Part shown: positions 2,751 through 45,178 of the stretch, in pieces
Position numbering within the stretch: position 1 is the first letter of the stretch
Layout: every line of letters begins with the position of its first letter
DNA from: a virus
Taxonomy: Duplodnaviria; Caudoviricetes
DNA length: 52,394 nt
Reading direction: 5' to 3' (one strand)
Virus record (IMG/VR): IMGVR_UViG_3300042291_001547
Span: 1 to 52,394 of that record
The notes under the pieces: generated by a model
The model's input: the letters and a program-made list of their open reading frames with translations, nothing else
Databases searched by the model: none
Told to the model about the DNA's origin: nothing
Made by a program: the position numbers and the translations under genes

Positions 2751-2766
2751 GGTGACCTCCTGGGTC

Positions 2767-2817
2767 GGACTCATCAGTACCGGCACATACCGGCAGACGC
2801 CTCGCGGCGTTTCGTCC
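2767..2817 (-). ncRNA. Hammerhead ribozyme, type II topology
   Basis: Minus strand reads GGAC-GAAA-CGCC(GCGA)GGCG-UC/-UGCCGGU(AUGU)GCCGGUA-CUGAUGA-GUCC: full core and all three stems pair; GUC cleavage predicted between 2796 and 2795; fills the intergenic space. Confidence 0.93.
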
Positions 2818-3117
2818 TTATGCTGCGACCTGCTTACGTGCGGTCAGGCGGATAACGGTTGAGCCTTCGCCGATGACGGTGTTGGCTTCGACAGCGCTGC
2901 GGAATGCAAAGTTGTCCCAGAGAACGTCTTTCACAGCTGACCAGTTGGTCTGTTTGCGGCCGACTTGCTGGCTGACGGTAACGCGGAACATGTCTGAGTC
3001 GATCTCAGTCAAGCCGGTGGCCAGGATCTGAGCCTTGATTGCGTCTTCCTGATCTTTCAGGTCGGCGATTGCTGAGCGGAGCTGGGCTAACTTGTCTACC
3101 AAAGTTGTTGCTTTCAT
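2818..3117 (-). CDS. Hypothetical early protein (N-terminal coiled coil)
   Basis: 99-aa ORF with GGAGG RBS, in operon orientation. Confidence 0.75.
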   Translation of the reverse strand: MKATTLVDKLAQLRSAIADLKDQEDAIKAQILATGLTEIDSDMFRVTVSQQVGRKQTNWSAVKDVLWDNFAFRSAVEANTVIGEGSTVIRLTARKQVAA

Positions 3118-3156
3118 GCTGTCCTCCTGGGACTCGTTGTTGGGTGGAGCGAGGTC

Positions 3157-3185
3157 ATTAAACTATGCTTGACAGTAACTGTCAA
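3157..3185 (-). promoter_or_regulatory. Sigma70-like promoter overlapping palindromic operator TTGACAGTAACTGTCAA
   Basis: Minus strand TTGACA-17 nt-TTTAAT; perfect 8+1+8 palindrome at 3169-3185. Confidence 0.65.
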
Positions 3186-3324
3186 CTGTTTTGTTGTAAT
3201 CTGGCCAGCCCAGTTCTCCGTTTGATTCCTCCCACAGCGCGACCATCTCGCAGTGGTGGTTCTGGGCAAGTTCCTGGTCGCCGGCACATGCGGTGAGCAG
3301 GATGAGCAGGGGCAGCAGTTTCAC
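3163..3324 (-). CDS. Small lipoprotein (53 aa)
   Basis: GTG start coupled to the upstream stop; MKLLPLLILLTAC signal with lipobox LTAC. Confidence 0.7.
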   Translation of the reverse strand: MKLLPLLILLTACAGDQELAQNHHCEMVALWEESNGELGWPDYNKTVDSYCQA

Positions 3325-3584
3325 TTTACACTCCGTAGGTGCTTCGGCACCGGCTGTTTGGTTTTCTCCAACACGATGTTGTACCCGAGTACCCGGGCAA
3401 CCGGCGCCAGCTTGTCTATCCTCGGCGCGCCTGTCTTGCCTGCCTTCCAGTTGTACAGCGTGCCCCAGTGGCACCCGGCTTGGGTTGCGATATCACGCAG
3501 CCCTTCGTCGCTGTATTTCCACAATTCGTGGATGATATCCACGAATATTGCTTCCCGAGTGTCTTCGTTGAGTTTAAGTTTCAT
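3321..3584 (-). CDS. XRE/Cro-like HTH transcriptional regulator
   Basis: LRDIATQAGCHWGTLYNWKAGKTGAPRIDKLAPVARVLG. Confidence 0.8.
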   Translation of the reverse strand: MKLKLNEDTREAIFVDIIHELWKYSDEGLRDIATQAGCHWGTLYNWKAGKTGAPRIDKLAPVARVLGYNIVLEKTKQPVPKHLRSVK

Positions 3585-3769
3585 CGTGCTTCCCCTAACC
3601 GTCGGTAGTCAGTGTTTTCCTGCCAGGATGGAGTCCTGGATAGGGTTTGCCATTCGCCTGGACGGTGCGACAAACCTTTGTCGCGGAACTCCCACAGCGT
3701 CCAGGGCGTACTTGTGGTCATCGCGTCGGCCGCGTAAGCGGCCATCAATTCTGCGTGTGCGTGTTTCAT
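3581..3769 (-). CDS. Hypothetical phage protein
   Basis: 62-aa ORF with GGAGG RBS, translationally coupled to the next gene. Confidence 0.7.
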   Translation of the reverse strand: MKHAHAELMAAYAADAMTTSTPWTLWEFRDKGLSHRPGEWQTLSRTPSWQENTDYRRLGEAR

Positions 3770-3797
3770 GTTTGTGTCCTCCTGGGACTGGTGGTGG

Positions 3798-4046
3798 TTA
3801 AGCTAAAACTTGTACTTTGCCCAGCAGCTTGACTGCGCCCACTTCGCGCAAAGCGACACCGCCCACGTTGTACTGCTGCCGCTTTGCCCCGGTGCGGCTG
3901 CCATACCCGGTAGCGCCGTTGCCGCCGATGTCGATGACCTTAACCACACGCAGCCGCTTCGGGCTGATCGCCTCGGCCTGAGCCGTCACGACTTCTGAGC
4001 GCCAGCCTGCTGGCGTGTATACTGCAGTGTTGTATCTGATTTGCAT
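3798..4046 (-). CDS. Hypothetical early protein (82 aa)
   Basis: ATG 4046 with GGAGG RBS; the longer ORF call to 4388 would run through the ribozyme and promoter. Confidence 0.7.
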   Translation of the reverse strand: MQIRYNTAVYTPAGWRSEVVTAQAEAISPKRLRVVKVIDIGGNGATGYGSRTGAKRQQYNVGGVALREVGAVKLLGKVQVLA

Positions 4047-4062
4047 TTTGTGTCCTCCTGGG

Positions 4063-4117
4063 ACTTGTTTCGGCCTGCTGAGCCTCGTCAGTAGCGCAGC
4101 GTCAGCGCTATACAAGT
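4063..4117 (-). ncRNA. Hammerhead ribozyme, type III topology
   Basis: Minus strand reads ACUUG-UA/-UAGCGC(UGACGCU)GCGCUA-CUGACGA-GGCU(CAGCA)GGCC-GAAA-CAAGU: full core and three stems; GUA cleavage predicted between 4111 and 4110. Confidence 0.92.
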
Positions 4118-4200
4118 TGCCGGTTTGTCCTGAGAGGCATCCGCCCCGGCTCCTGGTGTTTGGTCTGCGCCAGTCCGCAGTTGTTCGGTGTTGCAAGGCC

Positions 4201-4229
4201 ATTACATAGTACTTAACAGTAACTGTCAA
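4201..4229 (-). promoter_or_regulatory. Early sigma70-like promoter overlapping near-palindromic operator TTAACAGTAACTGTCAA
   Basis: Minus strand TTGACA-17 nt-TGTAAT with AT-rich upstream sequence; 16/17 identity to 3169-3185. Confidence 0.7.
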
Positions 4230-4249
4230 GCAATGTTTATTGATAATAA

Positions 4250-4279
4250 TTTCTATCGATAAAGCAAAAACGATAGAAA
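4250..4279. promoter_or_regulatory. Inverted repeat CTATC-N14-GATAG upstream of the virion operon
   Basis: TTTCTATCG...CGATAGAAA; same core and spacing at 10156-10182. Confidence 0.5.
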
Positions 4280-4381
4280 AAAGCGAATTTAAAAACTGTT
4301 TTACTTCGCGCAAGGCTTGCATTTGCCCATTGACTCGGAGAAACTCCGATTTTGGGAGACCCCTTGTTGAGGACACACAAA

Positions 4382-4603
4382 ATGGCACAAAGAATTGAGA
4401 TCGAGATCGCTGACGACGGCGCTACATCCGTCACTGTGATGATGGACGGCGGAGATCCGCAGATGATGGAGTTCGCCAGCACCGACGAAGCGCTTGACGC
4501 GCTTGGTCAGTTGCTCGCCGGTGAAGAGCCAGGCGAAGACGAGATGTGGAACGAAGAAGCCGCGGCGCGTGAAGCCCAACCAATGATGGAGGAGATGATG
4601 TGA
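4382..4603 (+). CDS. Hypothetical acidic protein
   Basis: GAGG RBS, ATG 4382, first gene of the rightward operon. Confidence 0.7.
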   Translation: MAQRIEIEIADDGATSVTVMMDGGDPQMMEFASTDEALDALGQLLAGEEPGEDEMWNEEAAAREAQPMMEEMM

Positions 4604-4803: not shown

Positions 4804-4806
4804 CGC

Positions 4807-5292
4807 ATGGCCGGTCTGATACGTGACGCAGATCGCCGGCAGCACAACCGCAGCGCCGAAGTCGATGACGACGGCGCTCCGCTGCTCGCGACGATAAATG
4901 CTTTTGACGAGCCGATGACGCCCACGCGCGCAGACGGCCGAGGTCATGCAGGCCTGGTATCGGCTAAGCGTCCTGGCACGATCAACCTGAAGTCAGTCGC
5001 CCAGGCGTGTATCGACGCAGGGCTTGACCCGGCGCTGGAGATCGCCCGGGTGCTGTCGACGAAGGTGCCTGTGCTGGACAACAACGGCAACCCGAAGAAA
5101 GACAAAGACGGTCAGCCGATGATGGTCGACCTGATCGACCCGGACACAAAGCTTCGCACGCTGACGCAGCTGCTGGAGTACAACCAGCCTAAGCTTAAGG
5201 CGGTCGAGATGAAGATCTCAGGCACGCTGGATCTGACCAGCGAAGAGCTTGACCAGCGCCTGACAGCGATGCTGTCAAGGGCTAGAAAGTGA
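4807..5292 (+). CDS. Putative terminase small subunit
   Basis: Directly upstream of and overlapping TerL; LLEYNQPKLKAVE and DLTSEELDQRL resemble TerS C-termini. Confidence 0.55.
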   Translation: MAGLIRDADRRQHNRSAEVDDDGAPLLATINAFDEPMTPTRADGRGHAGLVSAKRPGTINLKSVAQACIDAGLDPALEIARVLSTKVPVLDNNGNPKKDKDGQPMMVDLIDPDTKLRTLTQLLEYNQPKLKAVEMKISGTLDLTSEELDQRLTAMLSRARK

Positions 5293-6749
5293 ATGCCGTT
5301 CTGCAGGACATAGACATCACGCTGCTCAGTATCGATGAGCGCCGTGAGGTCTATGACCTGTTGAAGGAAAAGGATCTGCGCGAGAGGCGCAATCGCCTGG
5401 CCAGTTACAAGCCCTACGGCAAACAGCTGGAGTTCCACAACGCCGGGGCGGCGTACCGAGAGCGGCTGTTCATGGCCGCGAACCAGTCGGGCAAGACGTA
5501 CAGCGGCGCCTTCGAGGTTGCCATGCACGCAACCGGTCGTTACCCGGACTGGTGGGCAGGTCTTCGATTTCCCCGGGCTACTCGCTGGATCGTTGGATCC
5601 GAATCTGCAGAACTCACACGTAAAGGCCAGCAGCGCCTGCTGCTCGGACCACCAGAGCTGCGCGAAGAGTGGGGAACCGGGGCAATACCGTACGCGTGCC
5701 TGGTAGACACTAGCACCCGGCAAGGCGTCGCTGACGCAGTGGCCAGCTGTGTCGTCAAGCATGTGTCTGGTGAGAACTCAGTGATCCAGTTCAACAGCTA
5801 CGATCAGGGGCGCAGCAAGTGGCAGGCCGATACAGTTGACGGCGTGTGGATGGACGAAGAGCCACCGCAAACCATCTACTCCGAAGCACTGACGCGCACC
5901 AACGCCACCGGCGGGGTCGCGTTTGTAACGTTCACTCCGCTCATGGGTATGTCGGACGTCGTGCGTCGGTTCCTGCTCGACAAGCCGGACGGCACGACAG
6001 TTACCAACATGACCGTGCACGACGTCGAGCACTACAGCGTCGAAGAGCGTGAGCGGATCATCGCCAGCTACCCGGAGCATGAGCGCGACGCACGTACCAA
6101 GGGCATACCATCGATGGGTTCTGGCCGGGTGTTCCCCCTGGCGGAAGAGGCCGTCGCGATATCAGCTTTTTCCATACCTGATCACTGGCCGCGTATCGTC
6201 GGTATCGACTTCGGTATCGACCACCCAACGGCAGCAGTGTGGATGGCCTGGGATCGTGACGCTGACATCCTGTACGTCACCGACTGTTACCGGGTCAAGG
6301 ACACCGGCATTGTCACTCATGCTGCGTCGATACGCTCTCGAGGCGACTGGGTACCGGTAGCCTGGCCGCATGACGGCTTGCAGCGTGACAAAGGATCAGG
6401 CCAACAGCTGGCCGCACAGTACAAGACGCAAGGCCTGGCCATGCTGAAAGACCGTGCCACTTTCGAGGATGGCAGCAATGGCCTGGAAGCGGGCGTTGCG
6501 CAGATGCTGGAGAGAATGCAGACCCGGCGCCTGCGCGTGTTCAGTCACCTGAGCGAGTGGTTCGAGGAGTTCCGCCTGTACCACCGCAAGGACGGTTTGA
6601 TTGTCGCTAAGATCGACGACCTGCTTGCCGCAACCCGCTATGCTATGATGATGCGCAGGCACGCTAAAACCCAATCAGAAGCATCGTCCCGAGGGTTCTC
6701 CGCTCCGGTAATACCCTTCGACGTTTTCGACCCAGTGACAGGATATTGA
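5289..6749 (+). CDS. terL: Terminase large subunit (P22 gp2-like)
   Basis: ERLFMAANQSGKT (Walker A), GRYPDWW.G.RF, WMDEEP (Walker B), TFTPLMG, GIDFGIDHP nuclease, DDLLAATRYA. Confidence 0.95.
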   Translation: MNAVLQDIDITLLSIDERREVYDLLKEKDLRERRNRLASYKPYGKQLEFHNAGAAYRERLFMAANQSGKTYSGAFEVAMHATGRYPDWWAGLRFPRATRWIVGSESAELTRKGQQRLLLGPPELREEWGTGAIPYACLVDTSTRQGVADAVASCVVKHVSGENSVIQFNSYDQGRSKWQADTVDGVWMDEEPPQTIYSEALTRTNATGGVAFVTFTPLMGMSDVVRRFLLDKPDGTTVTNMTVHDVEHYSVEERERIIASYPEHERDARTKGIPSMGSGRVFPLAEEAVAISAFSIPDHWPRIVGIDFGIDHPTAAVWMAWDRDADILYVTDCYRVKDTGIVTHAASIRSRGDWVPVAWPHDGLQRDKGSGQQLAAQYKTQGLAMLKDRATFEDGSNGLEAGVAQMLERMQTRRLRVFSHLSEWFEEFRLYHRKDGLIVAKIDDLLAATRYAMMMRRHAKTQSEASSRGFSAPVIPFDVFDPVTGY

Positions 6750-6753
6750 TGAC

Positions 6754-8961
6754 ATGCAGACACCCGAAGAGATGGAGCAGGACGGCACAGACGAGCGCAT
6801 CAACCGCTTGCAGTCCTTTGGTCAAGCCCTCGGTCGGCAGAGAGATAACTGGATACGCGCCCGGTACGCACTGGGCGTCGACAAGCGCTGGGTCGAAGAC
6901 GAAGACCAGTACAACAGCAAAGACAACGTAAACCGCGCAGCGTCACAGATGATGACCAGCGTGGAGCAGGGCTACCCGGTCACCACCAATCACGCCAAAG
7001 CGCATCGCTCTACCGTGTATATCGGGTTGACCCGGCAGAAGACCAATGCCGCTGAGGCGCGCATAGCAGACATATTGATCCCCACTGATGACCGTAACTG
7101 GGGCATCAAGCCCACACCAGATCCGACAATCAGTGAGCTGATCCGCGACAAGCAGATAGCGGTAGACCCATCAACCGGGCAGCCGGTCACTGACCAGGAA
7201 GGCAACCCGGTGCCAATGAAGATGGTCGCCCGGGCAATCCTGCGTGACGCGTCAGACAAAGCAAAGGCCATGCAGCTGGAGATCGAAGACCAGCTGGTCG
7301 AGTGCGACTACCTCGGTGAGCTACGCAAAGTTATCCATGACTCAGCCAAGCTGGGCACCGGCGTGATCAAAGGGCCGGTTGTGATGAACCGCATTCGCAA
7401 GGCCTGGAAAGAGATCGTTGACCCGGCTACCGGGGAAAGCGTCCAGGCGATGGTCATCGTTGAGGAAGAGGGTCCAGCCAGCGTGCAGATAGACCCGCGC
7501 AACGTGTTCCCTGATCCGGGCTGTGGCACCAACGTGCAGAACGGCAGGGGCATATACGAGCGCGAAGAGATGACGTCGCGCCGGGTAAAGGAGCTGGCCA
7601 AGCAGCCAGGCTACATGCCCGAACAGTTGCGCAAGGTGCTGGAGGAAGGCCCTAAGCGCAGCCACGCGATGCAAGAGATCCGCGACGAAGAGCAGCGCGA
7701 CATTGCCGAAGACCTGTTTGAGCGCTGGGAGTACACCGGCGACGTAGACCACGACGACCTGGCCGCAGCGGGTATTCAGCTGCCCGAGAAGGACGTGCTC
7801 CGGACAATCAGCGCCACAGTGGTGATGATCAACAACACCGTCGTTAAGGCGTTCCTGAATCCGCTCGAAGACGGCTCACTGCCCTACGACTTCTTTGTGT
7901 GGGAAAAGTCTGGCAACAGTGTCTGGGGCTACGGCGTGCCGTACCTGATGCGTGCTCAGCAGAGAGTGCTCAACGCAGCCTGGCGGCAGATGATGGACAA
8001 CTCTGGCGTGACCAGTGGTCCTCAGATCGTCGTCAAGCCCAGCGTCATCCAGCCCGCTGACAAGCAGTGGCAGCTGTCCTCGCGCAAGATCTGGTACGCC
8101 ACAGACGACCTGGACGACGTGCGCAAAGCGTTTGCGTCGTTCGAGTTCAACAGCCACCAGGCTGAGCTGGCCAACATTATTGAGATGGCGATGGGGCTGG
8201 CGGACGCCGAGACTGGCGTGCCAACGCTGATGCAGGGCGAGAAAGGCACCGCTCCGGATACGGTCGGCGGCATGCAGATGCTGATGACCTCGGCCAACGT
8301 TGTACTTAAACGCCTGGTCAAGCAGTTCGACGACATGGTGACCAAACCGCACATCCGTCGGTACTACGACTGGAACATGCTGTACAACGAGGACAGCGCG
8401 ATCAAGGGCGACTTCTCAGTCGACGCCAGAGGCAGCTCAACGCTGGTCGTGCGCGACATCCAGAACCAGGCGTTCCTACAGCTGCTGGCTGCAGGGGCTA
8501 ACCCGGTGTACGGCAAGTACCTTGATCCTAAGAAACTGTTTGAGCGTGCGCTCCAGGCGCAGCACATTGACCCGGCAGAAGTGTTTAAGACTGACGAGCA
8601 GATCGAGGCGATTGAAGACGCTGAGCGTCAGGCGGCTGAGCAAGGGCAGAGCGAAGATCCACGTATTGCCGCGGCTAAGATCCGGGCGCAGACTGATGTC
8701 CAGCGCGTCCAGGCGCAGAACGAAGGCGACATGATGGAGCTGCAGACACGCCTGGATATTGCCCAGCAGCAGATAACTGCACGCCGGGAAGAGCGCGGGC
8801 AGATGATCGAGCTGGAGATGTTGAAATTGGCCAACGCGCAGAACATGTCGCTGGAACAGATCAAAGCCAAGCTTGGTGAGACCGCGATAAAAGAGCGTAG
8901 CAAACAAAGCTTGTTTGCTGCTGAGCGTAGACTGAAGATGCAGATGGGTAGCGGAATATGA
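6754..8961 (+). CDS. Portal protein
   Basis: 735 aa following TerL; LGTGVIKGP, WGYGVPYLM, ETGVP..MQGE, TVGGMQMLM; long helical C-terminus. Confidence 0.88.
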   Translation: MQTPEEMEQDGTDERINRLQSFGQALGRQRDNWIRARYALGVDKRWVEDEDQYNSKDNVNRAASQMMTSVEQGYPVTTNHAKAHRSTVYIGLTRQKTNAAEARIADILIPTDDRNWGIKPTPDPTISELIRDKQIAVDPSTGQPVTDQEGNPVPMKMVARAILRDASDKAKAMQLEIEDQLVECDYLGELRKVIHDSAKLGTGVIKGPVVMNRIRKAWKEIVDPATGESVQAMVIVEEEGPASVQIDPRNVFPDPGCGTNVQNGRGIYEREEMTSRRVKELAKQPGYMPEQLRKVLEEGPKRSHAMQEIRDEEQRDIAEDLFERWEYTGDVDHDDLAAAGIQLPEKDVLRTISATVVMINNTVVKAFLNPLEDGSLPYDFFVWEKSGNSVWGYGVPYLMRAQQRVLNAAWRQMMDNSGVTSGPQIVVKPSVIQPADKQWQLSSRKIWYATDDLDDVRKAFASFEFNSHQAELANIIEMAMGLADAETGVPTLMQGEKGTAPDTVGGMQMLMTSANVVLKRLVKQFDDMVTKPHIRRYYDWNMLYNEDSAIKGDFSVDARGSSTLVVRDIQNQAFLQLLAAGANPVYGKYLDPKKLFERALQAQHIDPAEVFKTDEQIEAIEDAERQAAEQGQSEDPRIAAAKIRAQTDVQRVQAQNEGDMMELQTRLDIAQQQITARREERGQMIELEMLKLANAQNMSLEQIKAKLGETAIKERSKQSLFAAERRLKMQMGSGI

Positions 8962-10450: not shown

Positions 10451-11305
10451 GTGGCAAATGATGAGCAGTTGAGCGCGCAAGACGCGCAAAAGGCGTGGGA
10501 CGAGGAAGCTAACCGAACGGACCCAGTAGAGCTGGCTCCAGACGCGCAACCGGAACCTGAACCTGATCTTGAACCAGAAGATCCTTTTGCTGGGTTGCCC
10601 CCGGCACTGATGGAGAAACTTAACAAGATCGACGATCTTCAGAGAGCCAACGAGGATCTCAAGAATCACGTTAAAGCAGCTGAGGGTCGAGTGGCCGCAT
10701 GGCAGCGCGAACGGGATCAACAACGTCAGCAAGCTGAGATTGTTGCCCCAACGAAAGCTGAAGTGAGCACGGCCAGTGCAAACCCGGAGAAGTGGAATCA
10801 ACTTAAAGATGATTTCCCTGAGTGGGCTGAAGCAATGGAGGAGTACGTCTCTTCTCGCGTAGGACAGACTGGGCAGAACGTTTCGTCCGATCAAATAAAC
10901 ACTTTGATCGAGCAACGTACTGAGCAGATCCGTAACGAAACGAGAGAAGCCGTTGAGTACGCCAAACTAGAGACCAAGCACGAAGACTGGAAGGAAACCG
11001 TTAACAGCCCAGAGTTCTTGAGCTGGATGAACGAACAGCCGGTCAGCGTGTACAACCTGATTGACAGCCCCAAGGCTGCCGACGCGGTTAAGATTCTTGA
11101 TCTCTACAAAGGCGCGAAGAAGACTCCGGTATTGTCTACAGTTGACCAGATTAAAAATCAACGTAAGGCCACGCTTTCCAATGCGCTATCGACCAAGCCC
11201 GGGGTGTCACGCCAGTCTAAGACCATTGACTCAATGACCCCAGAAGAACTTTGGAACTACGAAGCCAGGCAGCTTAAGAAACGTCAAGAGCAGCAGGGTT
11301 TTTAA
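10451..11305 (+). CDS. Capsid scaffolding protein
   Basis: Acidic N-terminus, coiled coils, HEDWKETVNSPEFLSW; directly upstream of the capsid gene. Confidence 0.75.
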   Translation: MANDEQLSAQDAQKAWDEEANRTDPVELAPDAQPEPEPDLEPEDPFAGLPPALMEKLNKIDDLQRANEDLKNHVKAAEGRVAAWQRERDQQRQQAEIVAPTKAEVSTASANPEKWNQLKDDFPEWAEAMEEYVSSRVGQTGQNVSSDQINTLIEQRTEQIRNETREAVEYAKLETKHEDWKETVNSPEFLSWMNEQPVSVYNLIDSPKAADAVKILDLYKGAKKTPVLSTVDQIKNQRKATLSNALSTKPGVSRQSKTIDSMTPEELWNYEARQLKKRQEQQGF

Positions 11306-11330: not shown

Positions 11331-12389
11331 ATGGCAATCCAAAATTACGGTACAGTCGCGTCGCGTAACCTTATTCGCGCCGCTCAAGGTATGCTCGAAC
11401 ACGCTCAACCCATCACAGTGCTTGGTGACTTCGGTACCCAGCGCGAGATGCCAATGAACAGCACTGACACGCTGGTCTTCCGTCGTACGCTGCCGTTCGG
11501 CGCGTCTGCTGTTGGTACCACAATTGAAGGCACTCAGCGTTACGCTGGCACGCCGAACATTGACGCTACTAACTTCGTCCTGTCTGAAGGCGTAACGCCA
11601 AACAGCAACACTATCAGTTTCCAGGACGTAACCGTCCAGCTGCAACAGTACGGTATTCTGTTTAAGTACAGCTCCAAAGTTGAACAGCTGTACGAAGACG
11701 ACATCCCTGGCGAGATGGTTAAGCTGACCGGCGAGACCATGGCAGAAGTCATGGAGATGGTTCGTTACGGCGTACTGAAAGCCGGCTCCACGGTGATCTA
11801 CGCTAACGGCACTACCCGTGCTGGCATCAACACCGCTATCAGCCTGAACGCTATTCGTAAGGCTGCGCGTACTCTCGAGAGCAACCGTGCTCGCCGAGTG
11901 ACCAGCCGTCTGGCTCCTGGCGTTAACTTCGGCACCCGTGCCGTGCAGCCCGCGTTCATCGTGTTCTGCCACACTGACGCTGTTGCTGACGTGCGTAACC
12001 TGCCAGGCTTTACCCGCGTGGAAGAGTACGGCAGCTTCAAGCCTATCCACGACCGTGAGATCGGCGCTTGCGAAGACTTCCGTTTCATCAGCTCTCCGCT
12101 GCTGAAGTCTTTCCTGGCTGCTGGCTCTGGCACGCTCAACGGTATGCTGTCTATCGCCAACGCCAACGTTGACGTATATCCGTTCCTGGTGATCGGTGAA
12201 GATGCATGGGGACAAGTTGCACTCAAAGGCATGTCCGCGATCAAGCCTGTAGTTCTCAAGGCTTCTCAGACCAACCACGCTAACCCGCTTGGCCAGTTTG
12301 GCTACGTGGGCGCTTCGACTTGGTTTGCCAGCGTGCGTCTGAACGACGCGTTCATGGCGCGTATCGAAGCCGGCGTAACTGCCCTCTAA
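11331..12389 (+). CDS. Major capsid protein, N4-gp56-like family
   Basis: MPMNSTDTLVFRR, LSEGVTP, QYG.L..YS, EIGACEDFRFI, DVYPFLVIGEDAWG, NPLGQFGYVG; strong codon bias and AGGAG RBS. Confidence 0.92.
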   Translation: MAIQNYGTVASRNLIRAAQGMLEHAQPITVLGDFGTQREMPMNSTDTLVFRRTLPFGASAVGTTIEGTQRYAGTPNIDATNFVLSEGVTPNSNTISFQDVTVQLQQYGILFKYSSKVEQLYEDDIPGEMVKLTGETMAEVMEMVRYGVLKAGSTVIYANGTTRAGINTAISLNAIRKAARTLESNRARRVTSRLAPGVNFGTRAVQPAFIVFCHTDAVADVRNLPGFTRVEEYGSFKPIHDREIGACEDFRFISSPLLKSFLAAGSGTLNGMLSIANANVDVYPFLVIGEDAWGQVALKGMSAIKPVVLKASQTNHANPLGQFGYVGASTWFASVRLNDAFMARIEAGVTAL

Positions 12390-33300: not shown

Positions 33301-36300
33301 CCAAGCTTGCTATGGATTCAAAGAGCTGGGCACAGGTGGGCATGGACCCTACCCGGCACGCGTACTTCTACGACCGCGCCACGCTCCAGCCAGTTGTGTC
33401 CGCTGACGAAGCAATCCAGGTGGGACCTCTCGTTCTTGCTAAGAACCCGGTGTACGGTAACAAAGAGGATTTTCATTTTAGCCGTAAGCAGGCCGATGAC
33501 ACCGACGAGCCGGTCAGGATTCGACTGGGTCGAACCGATAACACGGCTGCTAATAAGGCCTTGGATTCTCTCCAGGCTAAGCTTGCGGCCAACCCGCTAA
33601 ACGATAGAGAGCTTACGCGCAAAGGCGCAGCGGTTAACCTGTCCGTGGACAACGGGGCGCTACGCATATCCGATATTCGCAGCACATCACCCGGCCAAGG
33701 CGAGGCTTCAGAGCTGTTGGATATGGTGCTCGCCGAAGCAGACACCGCTGGCACAAAGGTTACGCTTTTCGCAGACAGCTACGTCGAAGACAGCGGGCTT
33801 AACACCGATGCCCTGGTCGATTGGTATTCTCGCCGTGGGTTTGAAGAGGTGCGACGAGACGAAGACGGCGTAGAAATGCGTCGGTACCCTGCTAATCTGC
33901 AGTTCAGCCGTAAGCAGGGCGGCGACGAGGTTGCAGACATCCGCGATGCCCGTGAAGAGCGGAACCTGCGAATGTTCTCTCAAGATTTACGGTCTCGAAT
34001 TTCAGATTCAGTTAAAACTCGCGCCGAGAATACCCGTAAAGTCGATGCTGAGGGGGGTTTCCTGGGCTTAGAAGTAGGAGACACTTTCTTGACCCAGGGG
34101 GCGGGAGGGCGCCGCTGGCGTAATAAGGTTATCGCTAAAAGTTTATCGCGTGTCGGTCCCTCTATGCGTAGGCCTACAGGTAACCTGAACCCTATATCTT
34201 CTGAATTTGAATATACTTTCGACAATACGGTTTACACCCCTGCCTTGTACGTAGAGACCATTGGTCCTGACGGAGACGTGTCGCAGACTACAAACCTGCT
34301 CTATCTCTTGGACCAGACCGGCTACACTAAAATGGGAGGGCCGAAGTTCAGCCGTAAGCAGACAGACACGCCCGACATCCGATTCAGCCTCAAGCAGCAG
34401 CCGTTTTACAGCAGCCTTAAAAGGGCTGTGGGTGATATGCCTGAGCGTATGCGCACGCAGCCTGCTAAACAGTGGGTGCAGTGGCTCACCTCGCCATCGA
34501 ATCAGAGCCGCTTCGGGTTTAAGAAAGACGAGGTCAGCTGGTCAGGCGTTGAGGATTACCTCAACCTACGCGGCAAGGATAAGGTCACTGCTGACGACAT
34601 CATCCAGTACCTGAACGAAAACAACGTGGTTGTACAGGACGTTGTGCTCGGTGGTACGCCGGTAGAAGAAAGCGCATACCCTGCCGGCACGTTCATGCTT
34701 CCGGAGTCTGGAGAGACTGGCGACATGGCGTATTGGCGCGAAGAGCTACAGCGCATTGCCGAGGAAGAAGAACTAGACGTTGATACTTTAATGGATGAGC
34801 TGGAGGATGTATCCGGTGAATCTATGCCTGTCGATGCTCCCGAAGACTCTGTTCAATACTCGCAGTACGTGGCAGGGCAGGGCGAAAATTACCGTGAAGT
34901 GCTGATCACTCTACCTGTCAAACAGGTTACAAAAACCTGGGTTGCTGACGACACTAAGAATGGTTGGCGGGTAAAAGACCAAGACGGATTGTATCTAGGC
35001 ACTATCCGTAAAGATAACGCCAAGACCGCGGAAGAAGCTATCGCCGAAGCCGCGCTTACGTTTCGAGGACGCAAACGTGCAGAGGAGGTGGACTATAAAT
35101 CTAGCCACTGGAGCGCGCCCAACGTTCTAGCCCATTTACGCGTGGATGACCGGTTTACATTAACGCCGTTGACGCCTGATGAAATAGCCAAGTTAGAGCT
35201 AATAGGCAAGGCTGAACCTAAGTTGAGCGCTGCGCGAAATAGATTAAGAGTTGCGCGGCGCGGTGCTGCTTTACGCCGCGACGTTCGTATCGATGCCCTT
35301 AAAGATGAGCTGCGGCCACTGGTGCGCGCGGGGCAGCTGCCCTTATCAGAGATGATTGCCAGACTGGATGAGGTGTCTAGCGAAGAAGATCCTTTAGTTA
35401 AAAAAGCAGCTGAAGAATTTCGCCAGTTGCAGGACTCTCTTTCAATTCCAAATACCCCTGTTCAAAATCGACAGAGCGTATTGTTCGTCAACGAAGTCCA
35501 GTCCGACTGGGGACAAGATGCTCGTAAAAAGGGTGTCCGGTCAGAGACTTTTGTAAAAGATGACAGATCAGTGTGGTCGGCTTTTGACGAATATACCGAC
35601 ACTCTTTACAGCGGCCGTTTTGACCGGGCGCTGGACTACTTAAGAATCAGATCTATAAATCCTGTGAGTTTTTTAAGGAATTCGTCTACTGATGAAATAA
35701 AAACGTTCTTCAACAAGTACGAACCTGAAAACGCAGCCGAGATAATTCCTTTGGCGGAGACTTATAAAAACGTAAGCGCGTTGCGTGAATCCCAGGCGGT
35801 GTCTTCTAAAGGCGTGTCCCCTGCACCGTTCATAGGCGACACCGAATCCTGGGCTACCTTGGCTATCAAGCGCGCGGTAATCCTGGCGGTGGACGGTGGC
35901 TACGATAAGTTGGCTTTCGTCAACGGCGAGCAAGCTGCTGAGATGTTTGATCTAAGTAAGCGCGTGGGAGAGATCTTATACAATGAGGGAGACGGTCGAT
36001 ACTCGTTAGTAATATACAGCCCTGACAATGACTTAATTCATAAGCAGGATAACGCCTCCCCAGACGATGTCGCTAACCTAATTGGTAAAGACCTGGCTAA
36101 TAAAATAGTCAACGGTGAAGGGGTGTACAGTGATAGTTACGGCGCCACGGTTATCTCGGGACTCGACCTGAAAGTCGGCGGTGAAGGCATGGCCGGTTTC
36201 TACGACGGCATCGTGCCTAACATCCTGCGTAAACTTGCCAAGAAGTTCGGCGGCACGGTAGCTGTTGAGCCAGTCCAGGTCAGCCCGGGACGTAGCAAGA

Positions 36301-39663: not shown

Positions 39664-39664
39664 A

Positions 39665-40071: not shown

Positions 40072-40085
40072 TTTAAACAGCTCCA

Positions 40086-42080
40086 TTAGTCAATCTCTTT
40101 CATGTAGTAGTCAGTTATAAATCCGTCAGCCCGCAGAGGTAGCCCGGGCGCCCAGTCAATCGCACGCCCCATGATCTCCTCCATCTCCTTAAGCCTATCC
40201 GTTCGCTCTTCCGAGACGTCTTCGTCGTGCACCGTAAACATCTGGTTAAAGCCCGCCTGGTCGAGCGCAAGCATCGATTCAGCCAGGCAGTCCCGGGCGA
40301 TAGCCTGCACCAGGTTCTCTACCGCACGCCCGCCGAAGGTCGACATGCGGCACCAGCGCCGCGTCGTCTGGTCGATACCCTTGTAGGTAACCGAGCCTTC
40401 GCGCGCCACTATAAAGTCCCCGTTCTTCAGGTCTTGCGTCTCTATGCGCGCGCTCGCGTAGAAGAGTTCTCGCCCACTCGGCAGCGTAACGATCAGATAC
40501 CCACTCGCGTACCGGTATTTAATCGTGCTCTGGCCAAAGGCTATCTTTATCTCGACGGCCGTCTTGCGGCGTATCGCCTCCTTCATGGCCGTCTCTACGG
40601 TGTACCAAAGCCGTACGATCTCAGGGTTAGCCAGCCGCCAGGCGTCCTTGATAGGGCCTAGCTCTTCCTCCGGTATCCCCATGTCCAGCGCGCCCATGTT
40701 AATCAGCGCGTTAACGCCGCCCTGAAACCCCAGCGCCAGCTCAGCGATCTTACCCTTCTGTCGGTAGGGAGACTTCTTCGTCACGCTCCCCGCGGGCAAC
40801 TTAAACATCTGCTCTGCCGACGCTTCGTAAATCTTGCCGTGCGTTTTAAACACGTCGATGCGCCACTGGCACCCGGCCATCCACGCGATAACCCGAGCCT
40901 CGATCGCGCTGAAGTCAGAGATCACAAGGAGGTGGCCGGCCTTTGGCACCAGAGCCGTACGTATTAACTGAGACAACGTATCGGGCACCGAGCCGAACAA
41001 CAGTTCAATCAGTTCTACCTCTCTCTTAATGACCAAGCGCCGGGCTAAATCAAGATCCAACAATTTATTCTGTGGCAGGTTCTGCAGCTGCACCATCCGC
41101 CCTGCCCAGCGTCCGGTTCTGTTAGCCCCGTAGAACTGCGTTACTCCGCGCAGGCGGCCGTCGCTGCACACACCCCGGCGCATCGCCTGGTATTTATTAA
41201 CCGAGGTCTTGGACATCTCCTGCCTCAGTCTCAGCACGTCTTCAACGACGCCTGGTCCTGCTTTCTCAAGCAGTTTGGGCACGCTCGTTTTGCGCAGGTC
41301 AGTCACGTCTTCGCCGGTCTCTTTCTCCAGCCACCGTATTAACTGCGACACGCTGTTCGGGTTACTAAGCCCGGTGATCCGGGTCGCCTCTGCGCGCATC
41401 GTCTTCTTGACCACCTCGTCGCAGTAGATCGCCGCGTCAATCAGTTCTATGTCCACGCCCACACCGTGCCGAAACATCTTCTGGTCCAGCAGCCACAGCT
41501 TGCGCTCTTTGGGCGGTACTGGGAACGTTGCAAGTTTTCCGCACACGTATCGCTCTGACTTCACGTCCCCTGCGCAGTAGCTCTTAAACAGCTGCCACTT
41601 CTGTGGCTCATGGTGCGGGCGGTTTCGAGTTCTGCCGCCGTTGGTTTTAGTCGGCCGGCAGGGAAGGCAGAACACCCTGATTAACGCGTGACCCGCGCGC
41701 TGCTTGTGGTACTCGTCCGGCGCCTTGATCGCGGTGCACACTCCGGCCAGATCGTTGGGCAGCCCGAGGTATAGCGCGTGTACGCTGGTGCATTCCCACT
41801 GGTCAGCCGGCAAATCTTTGCCCAGCATTTTGGATAAGCACGTCATCTCGAACTGCGCATTAAATGCTTTCTTACGCACGTTGGCGTCGAACAAGGCGGC
41901 CAGGACAGCGGCAGGTATCTGCTCACCCGAGGCCAAGTCAATGACTATCACTGGACCACTGTCCAACGCGTACCCAAACAGCAGCACCTCAAACTCAGGC
42001 GACTCTGCATACCTTGCGACGCCGCACTTCTTCAGATCGACGTCGCTGTAGGTCTCTATGTCAACGTGCATGGTTCTCAT
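40086..42080 (-). CDS. DNA polymerase, family A, with 3'-5' exonuclease
   Basis: DIETYS (ExoI), FNAQFE, YCAGDV, RTGRWAGR..QLQNLP, SDFSAIEARV (motif A), RQKGKIAELALGF (motif B), VHDE (motif C). Confidence 0.95.
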   Translation of the reverse strand: MRTMHVDIETYSDVDLKKCGVARYAESPEFEVLLFGYALDSGPVIVIDLASGEQIPAAVLAALFDANVRKKAFNAQFEMTCLSKMLGKDLPADQWECTSVHALYLGLPNDLAGVCTAIKAPDEYHKQRAGHALIRVFCLPCRPTKTNGGRTRNRPHHEPQKWQLFKSYCAGDVKSERYVCGKLATFPVPPKERKLWLLDQKMFRHGVGVDIELIDAAIYCDEVVKKTMRAEATRITGLSNPNSVSQLIRWLEKETGEDVTDLRKTSVPKLLEKAGPGVVEDVLRLRQEMSKTSVNKYQAMRRGVCSDGRLRGVTQFYGANRTGRWAGRMVQLQNLPQNKLLDLDLARRLVIKREVELIELLFGSVPDTLSQLIRTALVPKAGHLLVISDFSAIEARVIAWMAGCQWRIDVFKTHGKIYEASAEQMFKLPAGSVTKKSPYRQKGKIAELALGFQGGVNALINMGALDMGIPEEELGPIKDAWRLANPEIVRLWYTVETAMKEAIRRKTAVEIKIAFGQSTIKYRYASGYLIVTLPSGRELFYASARIETQDLKNGDFIVAREGSVTYKGIDQTTRRWCRMSTFGGRAVENLVQAIARDCLAESMLALDQAGFNQMFTVHDEDVSEERTDRLKEMEEIMGRAIDWAPGLPLRADGFITDYYMKEID

Positions 42081-42316
42081 TTGTCGTGCAACAACGCTGG
42101 GGTGCGCTCGCCAAAGTACGCGCACGCTATGTTGAAATCGTAGTACTCAAGCGCTTCTTCGTGCGACATGCTCTCTTCCGGGATCTCGATAATCTTGGCG
42201 GTGTCGTAGACCACAATGTCCCCGCCGGCAACCGAAGCAACGCCAATGATCGCCTCGTCGAAACCGTCCAGGGTTATCGCGCCTTCGTACCGCTCATTTA
42301 TCTCGCTTATGTGCAT
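42077..42316 (-). CDS. Conserved hypothetical acidic phage protein
   Basis: DGFDEAIIG...VVYD..K...EEALEYYDFNI..AY.GE.TP; GAGGAGG RBS. Confidence 0.75.
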   Translation of the reverse strand: MHISEINERYEGAITLDGFDEAIIGVASVAGGDIVVYDTAKIIEIPEESMSHEEALEYYDFNIACAYFGERTPALLHDK

Positions 42317-42676: not shown

Positions 42677-42688
42677 AATCAATGCCTT

Positions 42689-42832: not shown

Positions 42833-42845
42833 ATTTTCGCTCCTG

Positions 42846-42875
42846 AAGACCCCCCGCCTTTACGGCGGAGGGCTT
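42846..42875 (-). terminator. GC-rich stem-loop after the SSB gene
   Basis: CCCTCCGCC-GTAAA-GGCGGGGGG then TCTT on the minus strand; weak U-tract. Confidence 0.5.
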
Positions 42876-42880
42876 GTTTA

Positions 42881-43423
42881 TCAAGCCAGGATGTCGTCGT
42901 CTTCTTCGACACCGAACACGTCGTCAACGTTGACCCCGCCGCCTGACAGTCGCACGCCGTCGCTCTTCTTCTGAATCGCTTCAAGCCCAGGGCTAACCCC
43001 TTTGTTCTGCGCGCTGGCGTAAGCGTAGAAGTTTATCACCACGTTCGCGTAGCAGCCGCTATAGAGCTGGTCGTCATCGAAGATCTCCTGCTTTTGCTGG
43101 TCAACAACCTTTGGCATACGGTTGTAGTTGGCGCAGCGTATCAGGTACATGCCACGGTTCTCTTCGCCGGCGTACTTGAACTGTCCGTCTTCCTTCGCGT
43201 CTCCGTCCAACAGCGGAGATTTGCTAGGACCTTTGCCAAGCTTTGCCGCGCCCGCCTCTTTAGCCGCCGCAATCGCCGCCCGGATCTCATCGAGCTGCGG
43301 GTGGTTCTTGGGAACTAAACAGGTGGTCGACCAAACGCGTTGGCCTTTATCGTTCAGCTTGCCTTTAACAGCAAAGCAGTAGGACAGTCGTGTGTTTCTT
43401 AATACGATTTGCGTGTTACTCAT
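42881..43423 (-). CDS. Single-stranded DNA-binding protein (DUF2815)
   Basis: RLSY, PLLDGD, YSGCYA.V.INFYAY...NKGV..GL.AIQK..DG.RL.GG, acidic tail. Confidence 0.9.
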   Translation of the reverse strand: MSNTQIVLRNTRLSYCFAVKGKLNDKGQRVWSTTCLVPKNHPQLDEIRAAIAAAKEAGAAKLGKGPSKSPLLDGDAKEDGQFKYAGEENRGMYLIRCANYNRMPKVVDQQKQEIFDDDQLYSGCYANVVINFYAYASAQNKGVSPGLEAIQKKSDGVRLSGGGVNVDDVFGVEEDDDILA

Positions 43424-44574
43424 AAGCCCTCCTGGGGCGTCTCGTCGTTGAAATAAGCCAGCGCGTCGTACGCTGGCCTCTTATCGGATTCCGGTACAAG
43501 CGTTGGCTTGCCAGCCGGTTTCTCGATTAGTGTGCCGAGTATTTCGGCGAATGCTTTCTTACCTAACAGTTTTTCCATGGCCGTTATGCCCAGCAAACTG
43601 TGCTCATATATCAGCGCAGCGTCATAACCTTTTTCTATCAATGCCTCAGCAACGGCGTCCTGGTCAACGTACCTTCTGTTGCTGCGTCCTTCAACAAGTT
43701 TAAAGCCGGGTATTGGTTTGCCAGACTCAAGCCTTTTAAAGCCCCAGTCCTTTACATCACTCAGCCACTTAATGACTTGATCCGCTCGCGCCAGGACTTG
43801 CGCCATCTGCTTGTCGGTCAGCATGTCAGGCGGCTCAAACGCGAAGGCCGTGTCGACCAACTCTTGCGCCGCTTGGTTACGCTTTGGACAGGTGAACCTT
43901 GCCCGGCAAAAATAGCTGTGGCAGTGATCGCCTGCGACCATCTCGCCCTGGCCTTCCCAGGCGATCAACGCTTTGGGCACCACGACGTTCTCTGCCCACA
44001 ACAGCAGATCCTCGACGGTCATCTCTTCATAGCCCCAGTTATCAAGCCGTGGCTGCAAGACGTGGGTGCGCACCCGACGTATGTCGTACAGGTGGTTCAT
44101 CTCGTTGTACGCGCCCAGCCCGTATAGCCGCATCTGACTATTACCGGTAGGCGACACACCAACACCTTTGCCGTACTTCAGATCTGCAATCTCAACCAGG
44201 TCGTCAGTGATGATGACCAGGTCTCCGGTGCCAAAGCCTTCGGGTACCCAAGGGCTGAAGTCAAGCTTGCGCTCGACGTAGATGACCGGGTCTGCGCAGC
44301 GCTCACGCGCTTGCTCGATCAGCGTCACCGCGTAGTCCACGGCGCACTGGACGTGATCCATCATGTCCACCGTGATGCCTTCGGGCACAGCACTGCCCGG
44401 CACGCCCAGATAGATGTTCAACATCTGCTCAAAGACCTCATGCGCCAGGGTGCCCTCCGCCGCGAACGCGCTGTCCTCGTCGACGAACTTGTCTTCGAGT
44501 TGCGCGCTTGGCGTGCAGACCAGCCACTTGCCGCTGCTTGAGGCAGAGAGCACGGCGTGCTTACGTTCACTCAT
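43420..44574 (-). CDS. DUF2800 Cas4-like PD-(D/E)xK nuclease
   Basis: HAVLSASS..KW..C.PS, AAEGTLAH, GFGTGD, DLKYGKG, QMRLY.LG, QPRL, G.HC..FC....CP, KLVEGRSNR, KP.GKPTL.PESDKRP. Confidence 0.92.
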   Translation of the reverse strand: MSERKHAVLSASSSGKWLVCTPSAQLEDKFVDEDSAFAAEGTLAHEVFEQMLNIYLGVPGSAVPEGITVDMMDHVQCAVDYAVTLIEQARERCADPVIYVERKLDFSPWVPEGFGTGDLVIITDDLVEIADLKYGKGVGVSPTGNSQMRLYGLGAYNEMNHLYDIRRVRTHVLQPRLDNWGYEEMTVEDLLLWAENVVVPKALIAWEGQGEMVAGDHCHSYFCRARFTCPKRNQAAQELVDTAFAFEPPDMLTDKQMAQVLARADQVIKWLSDVKDWGFKRLESGKPIPGFKLVEGRSNRRYVDQDAVAEALIEKGYDAALIYEHSLLGITAMEKLLGKKAFAEILGTLIEKPAGKPTLVPESDKRPAYDALAYFNDETPQEGL

Positions 44575-44782
44575 CGTGCAGCACCTTTGGCACCCTGGAG
44601 AACATCTCGGTTTTAAACCAAACCTGCGCGTTCTGACAGATCTCTTCGACGTGGGTGTTCATGTAGGCGAACATGATCTGCGCGCCGCTGGGCATCGTGT
44701 CTGGCGGTAGTCCGTCAACAGTGCCTGTAATATCAACCGCTCCGGTGTCCAGGTTATCTTCAAATATTATTGTTGCTCGCAC
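44567..44782 (-). CDS. Hypothetical protein
   Basis: GAGG RBS; overlapping operon arrangement. Confidence 0.6.
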   Translation of the reverse strand: MRATIIFEDNLDTGAVDITGTVDGLPPDTMPSGAQIMFAYMNTHVEEICQNAQVWFKTEMFSRVPKVLHDE

Positions 44783-45144
44783 AGTGCCAGTCCTCTTGAG
44801 TAGATTTCGTCTAGTTTATCCGTGGGTATGCTTTTTAGATTTGTTGCCCCGTATTCAGCAAACAGCGCCGTTATCGGCTTTTTATCTTTGAGTGTTGCAA
44901 ACAACGCGCGAACCTCTTCAAGCGTTCTCGTCGGTTCTGCCGGCGGATGTTTAAGTTCTGCCGGCGGATGTTTAAGTTCTGCCGGCGTCAGCGTAACGTT
45001 CTCAAGCGTCGGCGGCGTAACTGCTACTGACGCCGGTGGCTTAACAGTCACGCCGTCCGGATCTGCTTCAGCCAGGTGAAGCAGCATGGCCGCAAGGGCG
45101 CGCAGCTGTGCAGGGTGTTCTCTTCCGTCTATTTCTATCTTCAT
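44767..45144 (-). CDS. Hypothetical protein of the kind that precedes DUF2800 genes
   Basis: Pro-rich linker with a 21-bp duplication (AELKHPP), C-terminal TLEEVR...LFAEYGA.NL..I; GGAGG RBS. Confidence 0.75.
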   Translation of the reverse strand: MKIEIDGREHPAQLRALAAMLLHLAEADPDGVTVKPPASVAVTPPTLENVTLTPAELKHPPAELKHPPAEPTRTLEEVRALFATLKDKKPITALFAEYGATNLKSIPTDKLDEIYSRGLALCEQQ

Positions 45145-45178
45145 GCTTGTGTCCTCCCGGGACATGTCTTGAGGTACA

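Follow-up and report, generated by a model that had tools for sequence, protein, structure and literature searches.

We describe here a 13-nt RNA hairpin that is wrapped around the Shine-Dalgarno (SD) sequence of six genes of a tailed virus, whose DNA, the complete IMG/VR virus record IMGVR_UViG_3300042291_001547 (52,394 bases, linear, CheckV completeness 94%), is called the window throughout. The hairpin exists and is under selection. It stands a few nucleotides before start codons, is restricted to one class of genes in this genome, is linked to hammerhead ribozymes, and recurs in the genomes of other phages. The reading that we prefer, and to which we would give somewhat less than an even chance, is that the hairpin lies at the heart of a ribosome-binding cassette that is portable, structured and cis-acting and would provide stand-alone genes with a uniform and insulated start; the effects that such a cassette would have on translation, ribozyme folding and mRNA stability we infer from the sequence.

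The pattern GNCCCRGGAGGNC (GNCC-CRGGA-GGNC, with both N left free) matches the window six times, always on the minus strand, against a mean of 0.06 and a maximum of 1 in the dinucleotide-shuffled window, and the two free positions form a Watson-Crick pair in all six copies although the pattern did not require it. An earlier note on this DNA had placed six such hairpins on the minus strand, 2-6 nt before start codons, and had proposed a comparison with shuffled controls; all six are recovered by the pattern search, where 0.06 would be expected (Table 1). By our own calls of open reading frames (ORFs; 19 leftward and 43 rightward), the hairpin precedes 6/19 leftward ORFs and 0/43 rightward ones (Fisher p 4e-4), and shuffling of the 25-nt upstream regions yields a mean of 0.068 hairpins, with a maximum of 3 in 2000. 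When the RGGAGG core is held fixed and only the flanks are shuffled, the mean is 0.045 hairpins against 6/8 observed, so that the element is not a by-product of a strong SD. Neither shuffled ribosome-binding sites nor late genes thus carry the motif as often as the leftward genes do. No hairpin was found upstream of the virion genes of the window, an absence that the earlier note had remarked and that holds in this genome, nor upstream of the genes for DNA polymerase, exonuclease, primase-helicase and DEAD helicase; the description of the set as early and replication genes is therefore too broad, although the SSB gene does have the element.

The AGGAGG of the SD is divided within the hairpin, with AGGA in the loop and GG in the 3' arm. 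Both Gs are paired with two upstream Cs; outside these, two more pairs whose sequence is free complete a 4-bp stem around a 5-nt loop. The 12 nt upstream have an A+C content of 69% and the spacer one of 80%, against a background of 51%, so that the hairpin is isolated in unstructured RNA. Pairing with the 16S rRNA 3' end was not seen to extend beyond AGGAGG, as judged against the standard rRNA tail. The hairpin occurs in four settings: behind a hammerhead, some 20-25 nt behind a promoter-like sequence, in a short gap after a stop codon (the 3776 copy), and inside the upstream gene, as at the SSB gene, where it overlaps the last codons of the DUF2800 exonuclease gene.

Compensatory changes and recurrence in other phages

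Relatives were found through their SSB and DUF932 proteins in viral and metagenome contigs, and five related virus records were taken whole. A flank-free census of the window and nine loci of eight related contigs, in which only C-N-R-GGA-G and a nearby ATG were fixed, gave 63 sites. All four Watson-Crick pairs are formed at 37 of them, all 37 sharing CC-C-R-GGA-GG, and the remaining 26 form at most three pairs and include one 3-bp variant, at an orthologous gene. Among the stems the distinct forms are GUCC/GGAC, GACC/GGUC, GCCC/GGGC, AUCC/GGAU, ACCC/GGGU, UCCC/GGGA and CUC/GAG. In an alignment of the eight distinct 13-mers, whose rows were picked after the pairing had been seen, so that the flank-free census is the fairer evidence, 96.9% of the cells are paired against 74.3% in shuffles (0/500 reach it). 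Both sides have changed in three of the four pairs of these 13-mers, and sliding the 3' partner by 1-3 columns lowers the pairing to 0-63%.

The hairpin is kept in every genome that has the gene, be it for the ~100-aa protein (7/7), DUF932 (7/7) or SSB (6/6). At the SSB site the stem is GCCC/GGGC in the window and L008, GUCC/GGAC in L058, L060 and L062, and UCCC/GGGA in L059; at the DUF932 site it is GACC/GGUC in five relatives (L058, L063, L093, L095, L096) as in the window, GUCC/GGAC in L062 and CUC/GAG in L059; and at the site of the ~100-aa protein L059 has AUCC/GGAU. The exchange of the second pair at the SSB site, from C-G to U-A, alters the tail of the exonuclease from Pro to Ser and from Gly to Asp (frames read from the sequence). 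At least six compensatory double changes at orthologous sites are set against one broken pair, and the loop CRGGA is kept throughout the paired copies. This covariation of the stem around a constant loop, in the window and at orthologous genes, supports the selection on RNA structure for which the earlier note had argued, and the covariation that it suggested looking for in related phages is found there.

One relative differs as a whole. In L059 the first pair is A-U, U-A or A.A at all six sites, against G-C at all sites of the other genomes; its hairpins are weaker by ~1.5 kcal/mol, even though L059 is the more G+C-rich (61.6% vs 55.6%). Since both the A-U and the U-A orientations occur, the change looks like a genome-wide set-point of stability and not like base-specific recognition by a protein. 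The genes behind the hairpin are diverse: of the 18 families into which the hairpin-led ORFs fall, 15 have only one or two members, the accessory ORFs being non-homologous, and a hairpin on unrelated accessory ORFs is what is expected of a portable expression signal.

The design is met again outside the clade. Among phage loci that are more distant (756 kb), an ATG is preceded 20 times by a 4-bp NNGGA hairpin, duplicates included, and these hairpins are never clustered. When the exact 14-mer GTCCCAGGAGGACA was sought in all viral contigs, at least 126 matches in at least 119 loci were obtained; among the matches listed, 56 have an ATG within 12 nt, four of the loci listed are further members of the clade, and many of the non-clade matches listed lie in G+C-rich contigs, before Ala/Pro-rich proteins. 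Ten ORFs downstream of the 56 ATG-linked matches listed were picked by hand: eight fall in head-scaffolding PHROGs, one in a major head family and one only in families of unknown function. A search by scaffolding homology, in which 21 of 32 loci were examined, several of these 21 being near-duplicates, found the exact 13-mer at 14, GUUC variants that keep a G.U pair at three and no usable start call at four. Among the other CCCRGGAGG start sites of the scaffolding-type loci, 7/19 have both outer pairs Watson-Crick, where chance would give 1 in 16. The cultured phages that come nearest by their scaffolding proteins are Streptomyces phages, at ~38% identity, and phage Lorelei has a partial version of the motif only. 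The hairpin-wrapped SD is a recurrent design, elsewhere serving genes that need high output; scaffolding genes are a class that is expected to be strongly expressed and not repressed.

Some further features of these loci can be added. In L207, L193, L190, L253 and L293-L314 an identical GTCCCAGGAGGAC precedes the scaffolding genes, usually behind a G+C-rich stem-loop and an A/C-rich linker, and the flanks and proteins of the actinophage-like scaffolding loci have diverged to ~30-50% identity. Microbacterium phage Eleri (L326) has three 4-bp SD hairpins with AAGGA loops (35631-35643, 38534-38546 and 31086-31098, minus strand), with the stems GTCC/GGAC, TGCC/GGCA and TCTC/GAGA, before leftward genes; this is about three times the background rate and not compelling. 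The first of them lies inside annotated gene 51, for which it suggests a later start. Literature matches listed for the strings GTCCCAGGAGGAC, CCCAGGAGGAC and GUCCCAGGAGGAC were primers or flavivirus work, none of it on phage, and a literature search for SD-in-loop motifs in phages gave only a T4 review and unrelated papers.

These comparisons bear on two accounts in which the hairpin itself does nothing. That the element has no function beyond that of a strong SD, the 13-mer having been copied along with genes and the pairing being a leftover, we hold to be very unlikely. Copying does account for part of the apparent conservation by identity, with GTCCCAGGAGGAC making up 27/42 of the cassette copies, and the stability of the hairpin is low, but a leftover would sit badly with the ratio of compensatory double changes to broken pairs at orthologous sites (at least six to one), with the keeping of the element inside a coding region at the cost of amino-acid changes, with the rarity of hairpins in SD-fixed flank shuffles (0.045 against 6) and with the recurrence in an unrelated phage group whose flanks have diverged. 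Least probable of the accounts considered here is an element that acts as DNA, either as the site of a DNA-binding protein (stoperator-like) or as a boundary repeat for the recombination of accessory cassettes, with the hairpin incidental. In its favour, genomes that are otherwise related mostly have different hairpin-led ORFs, an annealing-type SSB and an exonuclease are among the phage's proteins, and one metagenome contig (run X13) joins 3779 to 4047, hairpin to hairpin, omitting the 82-aa gene, although this joint has 30 letters on its short side and a depth of 5.7 and may be an assembly artefact at the repeat. The compensatory changes, however, preserve the pairing while the sequence varies, and a DNA binder that recognises a sequence would not put up with this; besides, the loop has no symmetry, and all copies are oriented with their genes and are as far from the ATG as an SD would be. 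Exchange may well take place at the repeat, as a by-product.

Hammerhead ribozymes beside the hairpin

An Rfam search with relaxed thresholds on the window and seven related contigs gave 22 hammerheads, 18 of type II and four of type III. Within 12 nt 3' of these stands the 4-bp hairpin in 19 cases, the 3-bp variant in one and a bare SD in two; seen from the other side, a ribozyme lies in front of 20/38 hairpins and 18/38 are without one. Six type II copies in the relatives score above the gathering threshold (41.4, 38.2, 37.7, 42.5, 42.2 and 39.9 bits). The two ribozymes that the earlier note had seen abutting hairpins are both detected, with scores below gathering, and both touch a hairpin. 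In the alignments both have a CUGANGA and GAAA core, helices I-III and an NUH cleavage site, and self-cleavage is predicted; the type III cut would fall after GUA, between 4111 and 4110 (by the family consensus), and the type II cut after GUC, between 2796 and 2795. Type III orthologues are present in L058, L059, L063 and L191.

Ribozyme and hairpin are joined closely. In the type II copy of the window the 3' strand of helix II, GUCC, ends exactly at the start of the hairpin, and in those of L093 and L191 helix II and the hairpin share GUCC, which serves the latter as its 5' arm, so that ribozyme and hairpin are mutually exclusive there. In type III the first two bases of the hairpin form the last two pairs of helix III; they are GU in the window, L058 and L063 and AU in L059, and each partner of this shared dinucleotide, one in helix III (5' strand) and one in the hairpin (3' arm), changes with it (AC to AU). 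Hammerhead topology suggests that the shared or adjoining strand is the one released when the cleaved 5' fragment leaves.

One interpretation goes further and takes hammerhead and SD hairpin for a single cleavage-coupled ribosome-binding switch, which we consider unlikely. The folded ribozyme would hold the 5' arm of the hairpin in helix II (L093, L191) or in helix III (window, L059); after loss of the 5' fragment the freed strand would pair with GG(N)C behind the SD, and this pairing would make cleavage irreversible and set the translational state of the new monocistronic mRNA.

The hammerheads are densely packed in the clade (L058, L059, L062, L063, L093, L095, L096, L191), with up to four in ~1.4 kb (L093), and flank single small accessory genes that vary between genomes. 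Clustered hammerheads flanking single prophage genes were reported in a 2011 survey, which suggested mRNA processing and called the biological function unclear, and whose hammerhead account, in the accessible part of the paper, mentions no ribosome-binding site (PMC3088659). In the window a mini-ORF of 10 codons (4108-4140, minus strand; MPLRTNRQLV and stop), with a CAGGAG SD 8 nt upstream, runs into the type III copy, where its last sense codon GUA and its stop UAG straddle the presumed cut. It is identical in L058, L063 and L191, and in L059 the frame continues into the ribozyme core. Folding of the ribozyme could meet competition from translation through helix III, or cleavage could leave a non-stop message.

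Other copies stand behind promoter-like sequences. A perfect palindrome, TTGACAGTAACTGTCAA (3169-3185, plus-strand coordinates), shares bases with the -35 box of the promoter-like site that precedes the 99-aa gene and is likely an operator, and an 87-aa ORF resembling helix-turn-helix proteins (3321-3584) lies directly upstream of it. The 125-aa ORF is the first gene behind a promoter-like stretch, and the TTGCAC box before the 45151 copy has counterparts in L059 and L062, as judged by eye. In L062 two cassettes (10509-10521 and 10789-10801, minus strand) are both found behind the same promoter-like TTGACA box, stem-loop GCCGACC-GCC-GGTCGGC and linker GAACAAG; in this module promoter and 5' hairpin occupy the place that is held elsewhere by a ribozyme.

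How the hairpin could act

As a ribosome-binding cassette the element would consist, from 5' to 3', of an A/C-rich single-stranded flank, the 4-bp stem with its 5-nt loop, an A/C-rich spacer of 2-8 nt and the AUG. The local helix is predicted to be weak, with -1 to -5 kcal/mol at 37 C and a greater stability in lake water, and it would prevent capture of the strong SD by hammerheads, 5' hairpins and GC-rich coding RNA without being too firm for a 30S subunit to open. In the ribozyme-processed leftward operons each stand-alone gene would in this way obtain the same, context-independent start. Behind a hammerhead the hairpin would abut or use the strand freed by the departure of the 5' fragment and, as its strand adjoins or comes from that of the ribozyme, would form fully only after cleavage. 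For the loop C, the only conserved base that neither SD nor stem requires, a cis explanation can be offered: it would be the single base that neither extends the SD:anti-SD pairing nor pairs with the loop A. In the work of de Smit and van Duin on the MS2 coat start, translation reportedly suffers little from hairpins weaker than about -6 kcal/mol, and such a low cost would fit a protective rather than a repressive role.

Several observations weigh against a protective cassette of this kind: (i) The hairpin is weak. The isolated 13-mers have free energies of -3.2 to -5.3 kcal/mol, with z-scores of about -0.7 to -1, and so are no better than shuffles; a helix of -3 kcal/mol may protect little, and the minimum-energy fold shows the hairpin in four of six longer window contexts and misses it in two. 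(ii) Ribozymes do not need the hairpin. In the clade, the hammerheads of L062 (9233-9294) and L095 (848-915) precede a CAGGAG SD without a 3' arm, and in the sister lineage L015/L097 (DUF932 56% identical), which was viewed by eye and lay outside the Rfam search, a hammerhead-like tail precedes an ordinary SD without hairpin. (iii) The strand overlap varies, from 0 nt in the type III copy of L191 through 2 nt in those of the window and L059 to 4 nt, the complete 5' arm, in the type II copies of L093 and L191; it is not obligatory, since one extra base in L191 removes the type III overlap. (iv) The element is confined to two leftward operons, and rightward non-structural genes with stand-alone SDs do without it, which fits a class-specific regulator as well as a cis element. 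(v) The rigid geometry of 4 bp and 5 nt and the invariant loop suit a protein site equally. (vi) The scaffolding series displays conservation of sequence and not compensatory change, and its members may share ancestry or a reader.

In another reading the hairpin is the operator of a trans-acting RNA-binding protein, either host CsrA/RsmA or an unrecognised phage protein, which would shut off or time the translation of one class of genes. We regard it as unlikely overall, and CsrA itself as the reader as a very doubtful case of it. By occupying the GGA loop the protein would hold the weak SD/anti-SD helix closed and keep the 30S subunit away, a mechanism described for RsmA on the psl leader. 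All six window copies show features listed for CsrA sites in PMC7652899, with GGA in the loop, a stem of at most 4 bp and overlap with the SD, and CAGGAGG resembles the CsrB repeat CAGGA(U/A/C)G of the same source. An invariant loop on a stem of free sequence is, moreover, the classic picture of a protein-bound hairpin, the element keeps to two operons in this genome, and the six L059 sites have shifted jointly.

The specific case for CsrA fares less well when the details are compared. CsrA sites usually have a 6-nt loop, an ACA and a second site, whereas the present element has a 5-nt loop and neither of the other two; the likeness lies in the loop GGA, the short stem of at most 4 bp, the overlap with the SD and a helix that a protein could lock. 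The SELEX consensus is RUACARGGAUGU, with ACA 100% conserved and dual-site targets, in which the second site is 10-63 nt away, the usual case, though one known target has a single site and the dual-site feature is not absolute (PMC7652899). Here the positions aligned with ACA read N-C-C, the 45151-45163 copy has CGGGA and hence no A before GGA, and a second GGA 5-63 nt away is found upstream of 15/37 copies and downstream of 8/37, against 50% of random 58-nt stretches, so that the dual-site layout is not enriched. No csrA (PF02599) was found in the phage. The homology matches are too distant, and their hosts too mixed, for a host, and with it a host CsrA, to be assigned.

A phage-encoded reader did not come to light among the conserved neighbours, where no candidate RNA-binding protein was found. 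The AlphaFold model of the 99-aa protein, built from seven sequences, has a mean pLDDT of 59.5 and is too poor to search with, its look-alikes in the Atlas being hypothetical viral clusters only; the 125-aa protein, for which 10 relatives were found, is helical, carries a proline-rich repeat that varies, and shows nothing nuclease-like. The identical 13-mer before the scaffolding genes of unrelated actinophage-like contigs does not fit the repressor site of early genes, and, since CsrA is not known from actinobacteria, it also argues against CsrA as a general reader. The translational switch read by CsrA/RsmA that the earlier note proposed is therefore not supported. These objections remove the specific support for CsrA, and a protein reader of another kind is possible.

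The placing of GGAG also calls to mind an endoribonuclease that cuts inside the SD to inactivate mRNAs, as RegB of phage T4 cuts GGAG after its second G, or a stem that shields the SD from a nuclease; this we think quite unlikely. A RegB site is GGAG with GGA unpaired and the fourth G constrained, and its strong consensus is GGAGRAYARAA with the cut after GG, according to PMC3014915. The geometry is present in all copies, where GGA is part of the loop and the G after it belongs to the first pair of the stem, and at least 9/11 positions of the consensus agree in 27/42 cassettes (~6.5 expected behind a fixed GGAG) and 10/11 in 17/42, although the stem and the A/C-rich spacer account for much of this match. 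Both T4 RegB sites and the present element place an SD GGAG in one phage gene class with a purine- or A-rich stretch on its 3' side. Here, however, the stem pairs two SD bases and no RegB-like gene is seen: RegB (PF10715) and a ParE/RelE-type toxin (PF05016) gave no match in the phage at E up to 10. RegB is, besides, inhibited by secondary structure (PMC3014915), and the same 13-mer stands at scaffolding genes of other phages, whereas T4 late messages are not RegB targets.

The phage and comparable systems

The features of the window are collected in Table 1. No close cultured relative was found when the DNA polymerase, portal and DUF932 proteins were compared with GenBank phages by tblastn, all matches lying below 60% identity and in phages of diverse hosts, and a genome scan with DUF932 gave two 47% matches, in Methylovulum and in a Nitrosomonas metagenome-assembled genome. 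The public runs that contain DNA of the phage are lake-water metagenomes. One public RNA run, available as assembled contigs only, contains 0.07 of the sampled window words, and its contigs cover 1876-2313 and 2814-3008, which is not proof of transcription. In a comparison of four public runs (X20, X3, X13 and X17), none of the 40 best-supported differences of 205 falls within four hairpins, which carries little weight as contigs tend to break at the repeat. Transcript ends were not seen in this comparison, contigs being unable to display them.

Table 1. Features of the window, with positions counted from its first base.
Feature	Position	Strand	Details
SD hairpin GACC-CAGGA-GGUC	2754-2766	-	GACCCAGGAGGTC; 3 nt before ATG of DUF932 gene
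SD hairpin GUCC-CAGGA-GGAC	3121-3133	-	GTCCCAGGAGGAC; 3 nt before ATG of 99-aa gene (2818-3117)
SD hairpin GUCC-CAGGA-GGAC	3776-3788	-	GTCCCAGGAGGAC; 6 nt before ATG of 62-aa ORF (3581-3769)
SD hairpin GUCC-CAGGA-GGAC	4052-4064	-	GTCCCAGGAGGAC; 5 nt before ATG of 82-aa ORF (3798-4046)
SD hairpin GCCC-CAGGA-GGGC	43426-43438	-	GCCCCAGGAGGGC; 2 nt before ATG of SSB gene
SD hairpin (U)GUCC-CGGGA-GGAC(A)	45151-45163	-	GTCCCGGGAGGAC; 6 nt before ATG of 125-aa ORF (44767-45144)
Hammerhead type II	2760-2817	-	28.4 bits, E 0.0067, below Rfam gathering score of 37
Hammerhead type III	4062-4118	-	31.4 bits, E 5e-4, below Rfam gathering score of 48.5
Promoter-like TTGACA-N17-TTTAAT	3157-3185	-	23 nt upstream of hairpin 3121-3133; pattern match only, not listed by consensus scan
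DEAD-type helicase	239-1558	+	
DUF932 protein	1923-2750	-	
Large terminase	5289-6749		P22/Xfas53-like
Portal	6754-8961		
Major head protein	11331-12389		
Polyvalent protein	27312-39053	+	3913 aa, C-terminal LPD38 domain; end of virion module
Family A DNA polymerase	40086-42125	-	
SSB	42881-43423	-	gp2.5/Enc34-type
DUF2800 exonuclease	43420-44574	-	
Primase-helicase	49750-52158	+	

Two other identities for the element were tried and given up. A hairpin promoter as in phage N4 was rejected, since the element is placed before the ATG as an SD is and since the 3913-aa ORF has LPD38 only, a Pfam search of that ORF having found no other domain; as for an antisense terminator, two hairpins scored weakly terminator-like on the plus strand, a count not above that of shuffles. 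The 125-aa gene, with which the right-hand leftward operon begins, holds a tandem PAELKHP repeat (~44936-45016), whose copy number varies among near-identical relatives, giving proteins of 116 to 132 aa, and which gave a spurious match to mir-136.

What is found here does not show a new regulatory system, and if the hairpin is only a mildly stabilising context for the ribosome-binding site, it amounts to a neat but ordinary item of phage gene design. It is nevertheless a second, independent start-associated motif in phages. The closest known thing to it is the start-associated sequence (SAS) of Cluster K mycobacteriophages, a 13-nt motif, GGGATAGGAGCCC, that lies 3-7 nt before mostly ATG starts of non-structural genes, in one orientation (Pope et al. 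2011; PMC3203893), and whose function was still untested in 2025 according to PMC12699233. Both are asymmetric 13-nt motifs with an SD core (AGGAG in SAS) and complementary outer bases (GGG...CCC in SAS) that stand shortly before starts of non-structural genes, always with the same orientation, and serve unrelated gene families, SAS with many copies per genome. However, they also show clear differences: (i) Folded, SAS would have a 3-bp stem and a 7-nt loop, whereas the present element has a 4-bp stem, a 5-nt loop and a different sequence, which deviates from GGGATAGGAGCCC at more than the two positions that membership allows. (ii) SAS is often accompanied by 17-bp ESAS inverted repeats and by no ribozymes, and the accessible part of PMC3203893 reports no compensatory variation. 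(iii) The phage lineages differ, and probably the hosts too, and no Cluster K actinophage relatives of the present phage were found. The element is thus an analogue of SAS and not a member. Its clear compensatory variation means that the reading as an RNA hairpin rests on evidence beyond symmetry, and gives a handle on a class of motifs whose function has been open since 2011. If pairing proves to be enriched at NNCCCRGGAGGNN sites before starts across viral lineages, the hairpin would be a general type of ribosome-binding site.

The other comparison is with RiboJ, in which a ribozyme derived from the sTRSV hammerhead is followed by a 23-nt hairpin ahead of the ribosome-binding site (PMC6206723). 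In both, a hammerhead is followed directly by a small hairpin before the start, and in RiboJ this arrangement gives processed mRNAs the same 5' context; a natural counterpart of the RiboJ order is present at 20/22 of the clade hammerheads. The two differ in that the hairpin of RiboJ lies upstream of its ribosome-binding site, which it is thought to expose, whereas the present element holds the SD inside the hairpin. Its position behind nearly every hammerhead of the clade leads to the testable idea that clustered phage hammerheads make single-gene mRNAs with a standard start, and the cleavage-coupled switch, if true, would be a natural counterpart of RiboJ and give these clustered hammerheads a defined role in gene expression. 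Ribozyme, A/C-rich linker and SD mini-hairpin together form a compact natural part that, like RiboJ, may be useful as an expression insulator.

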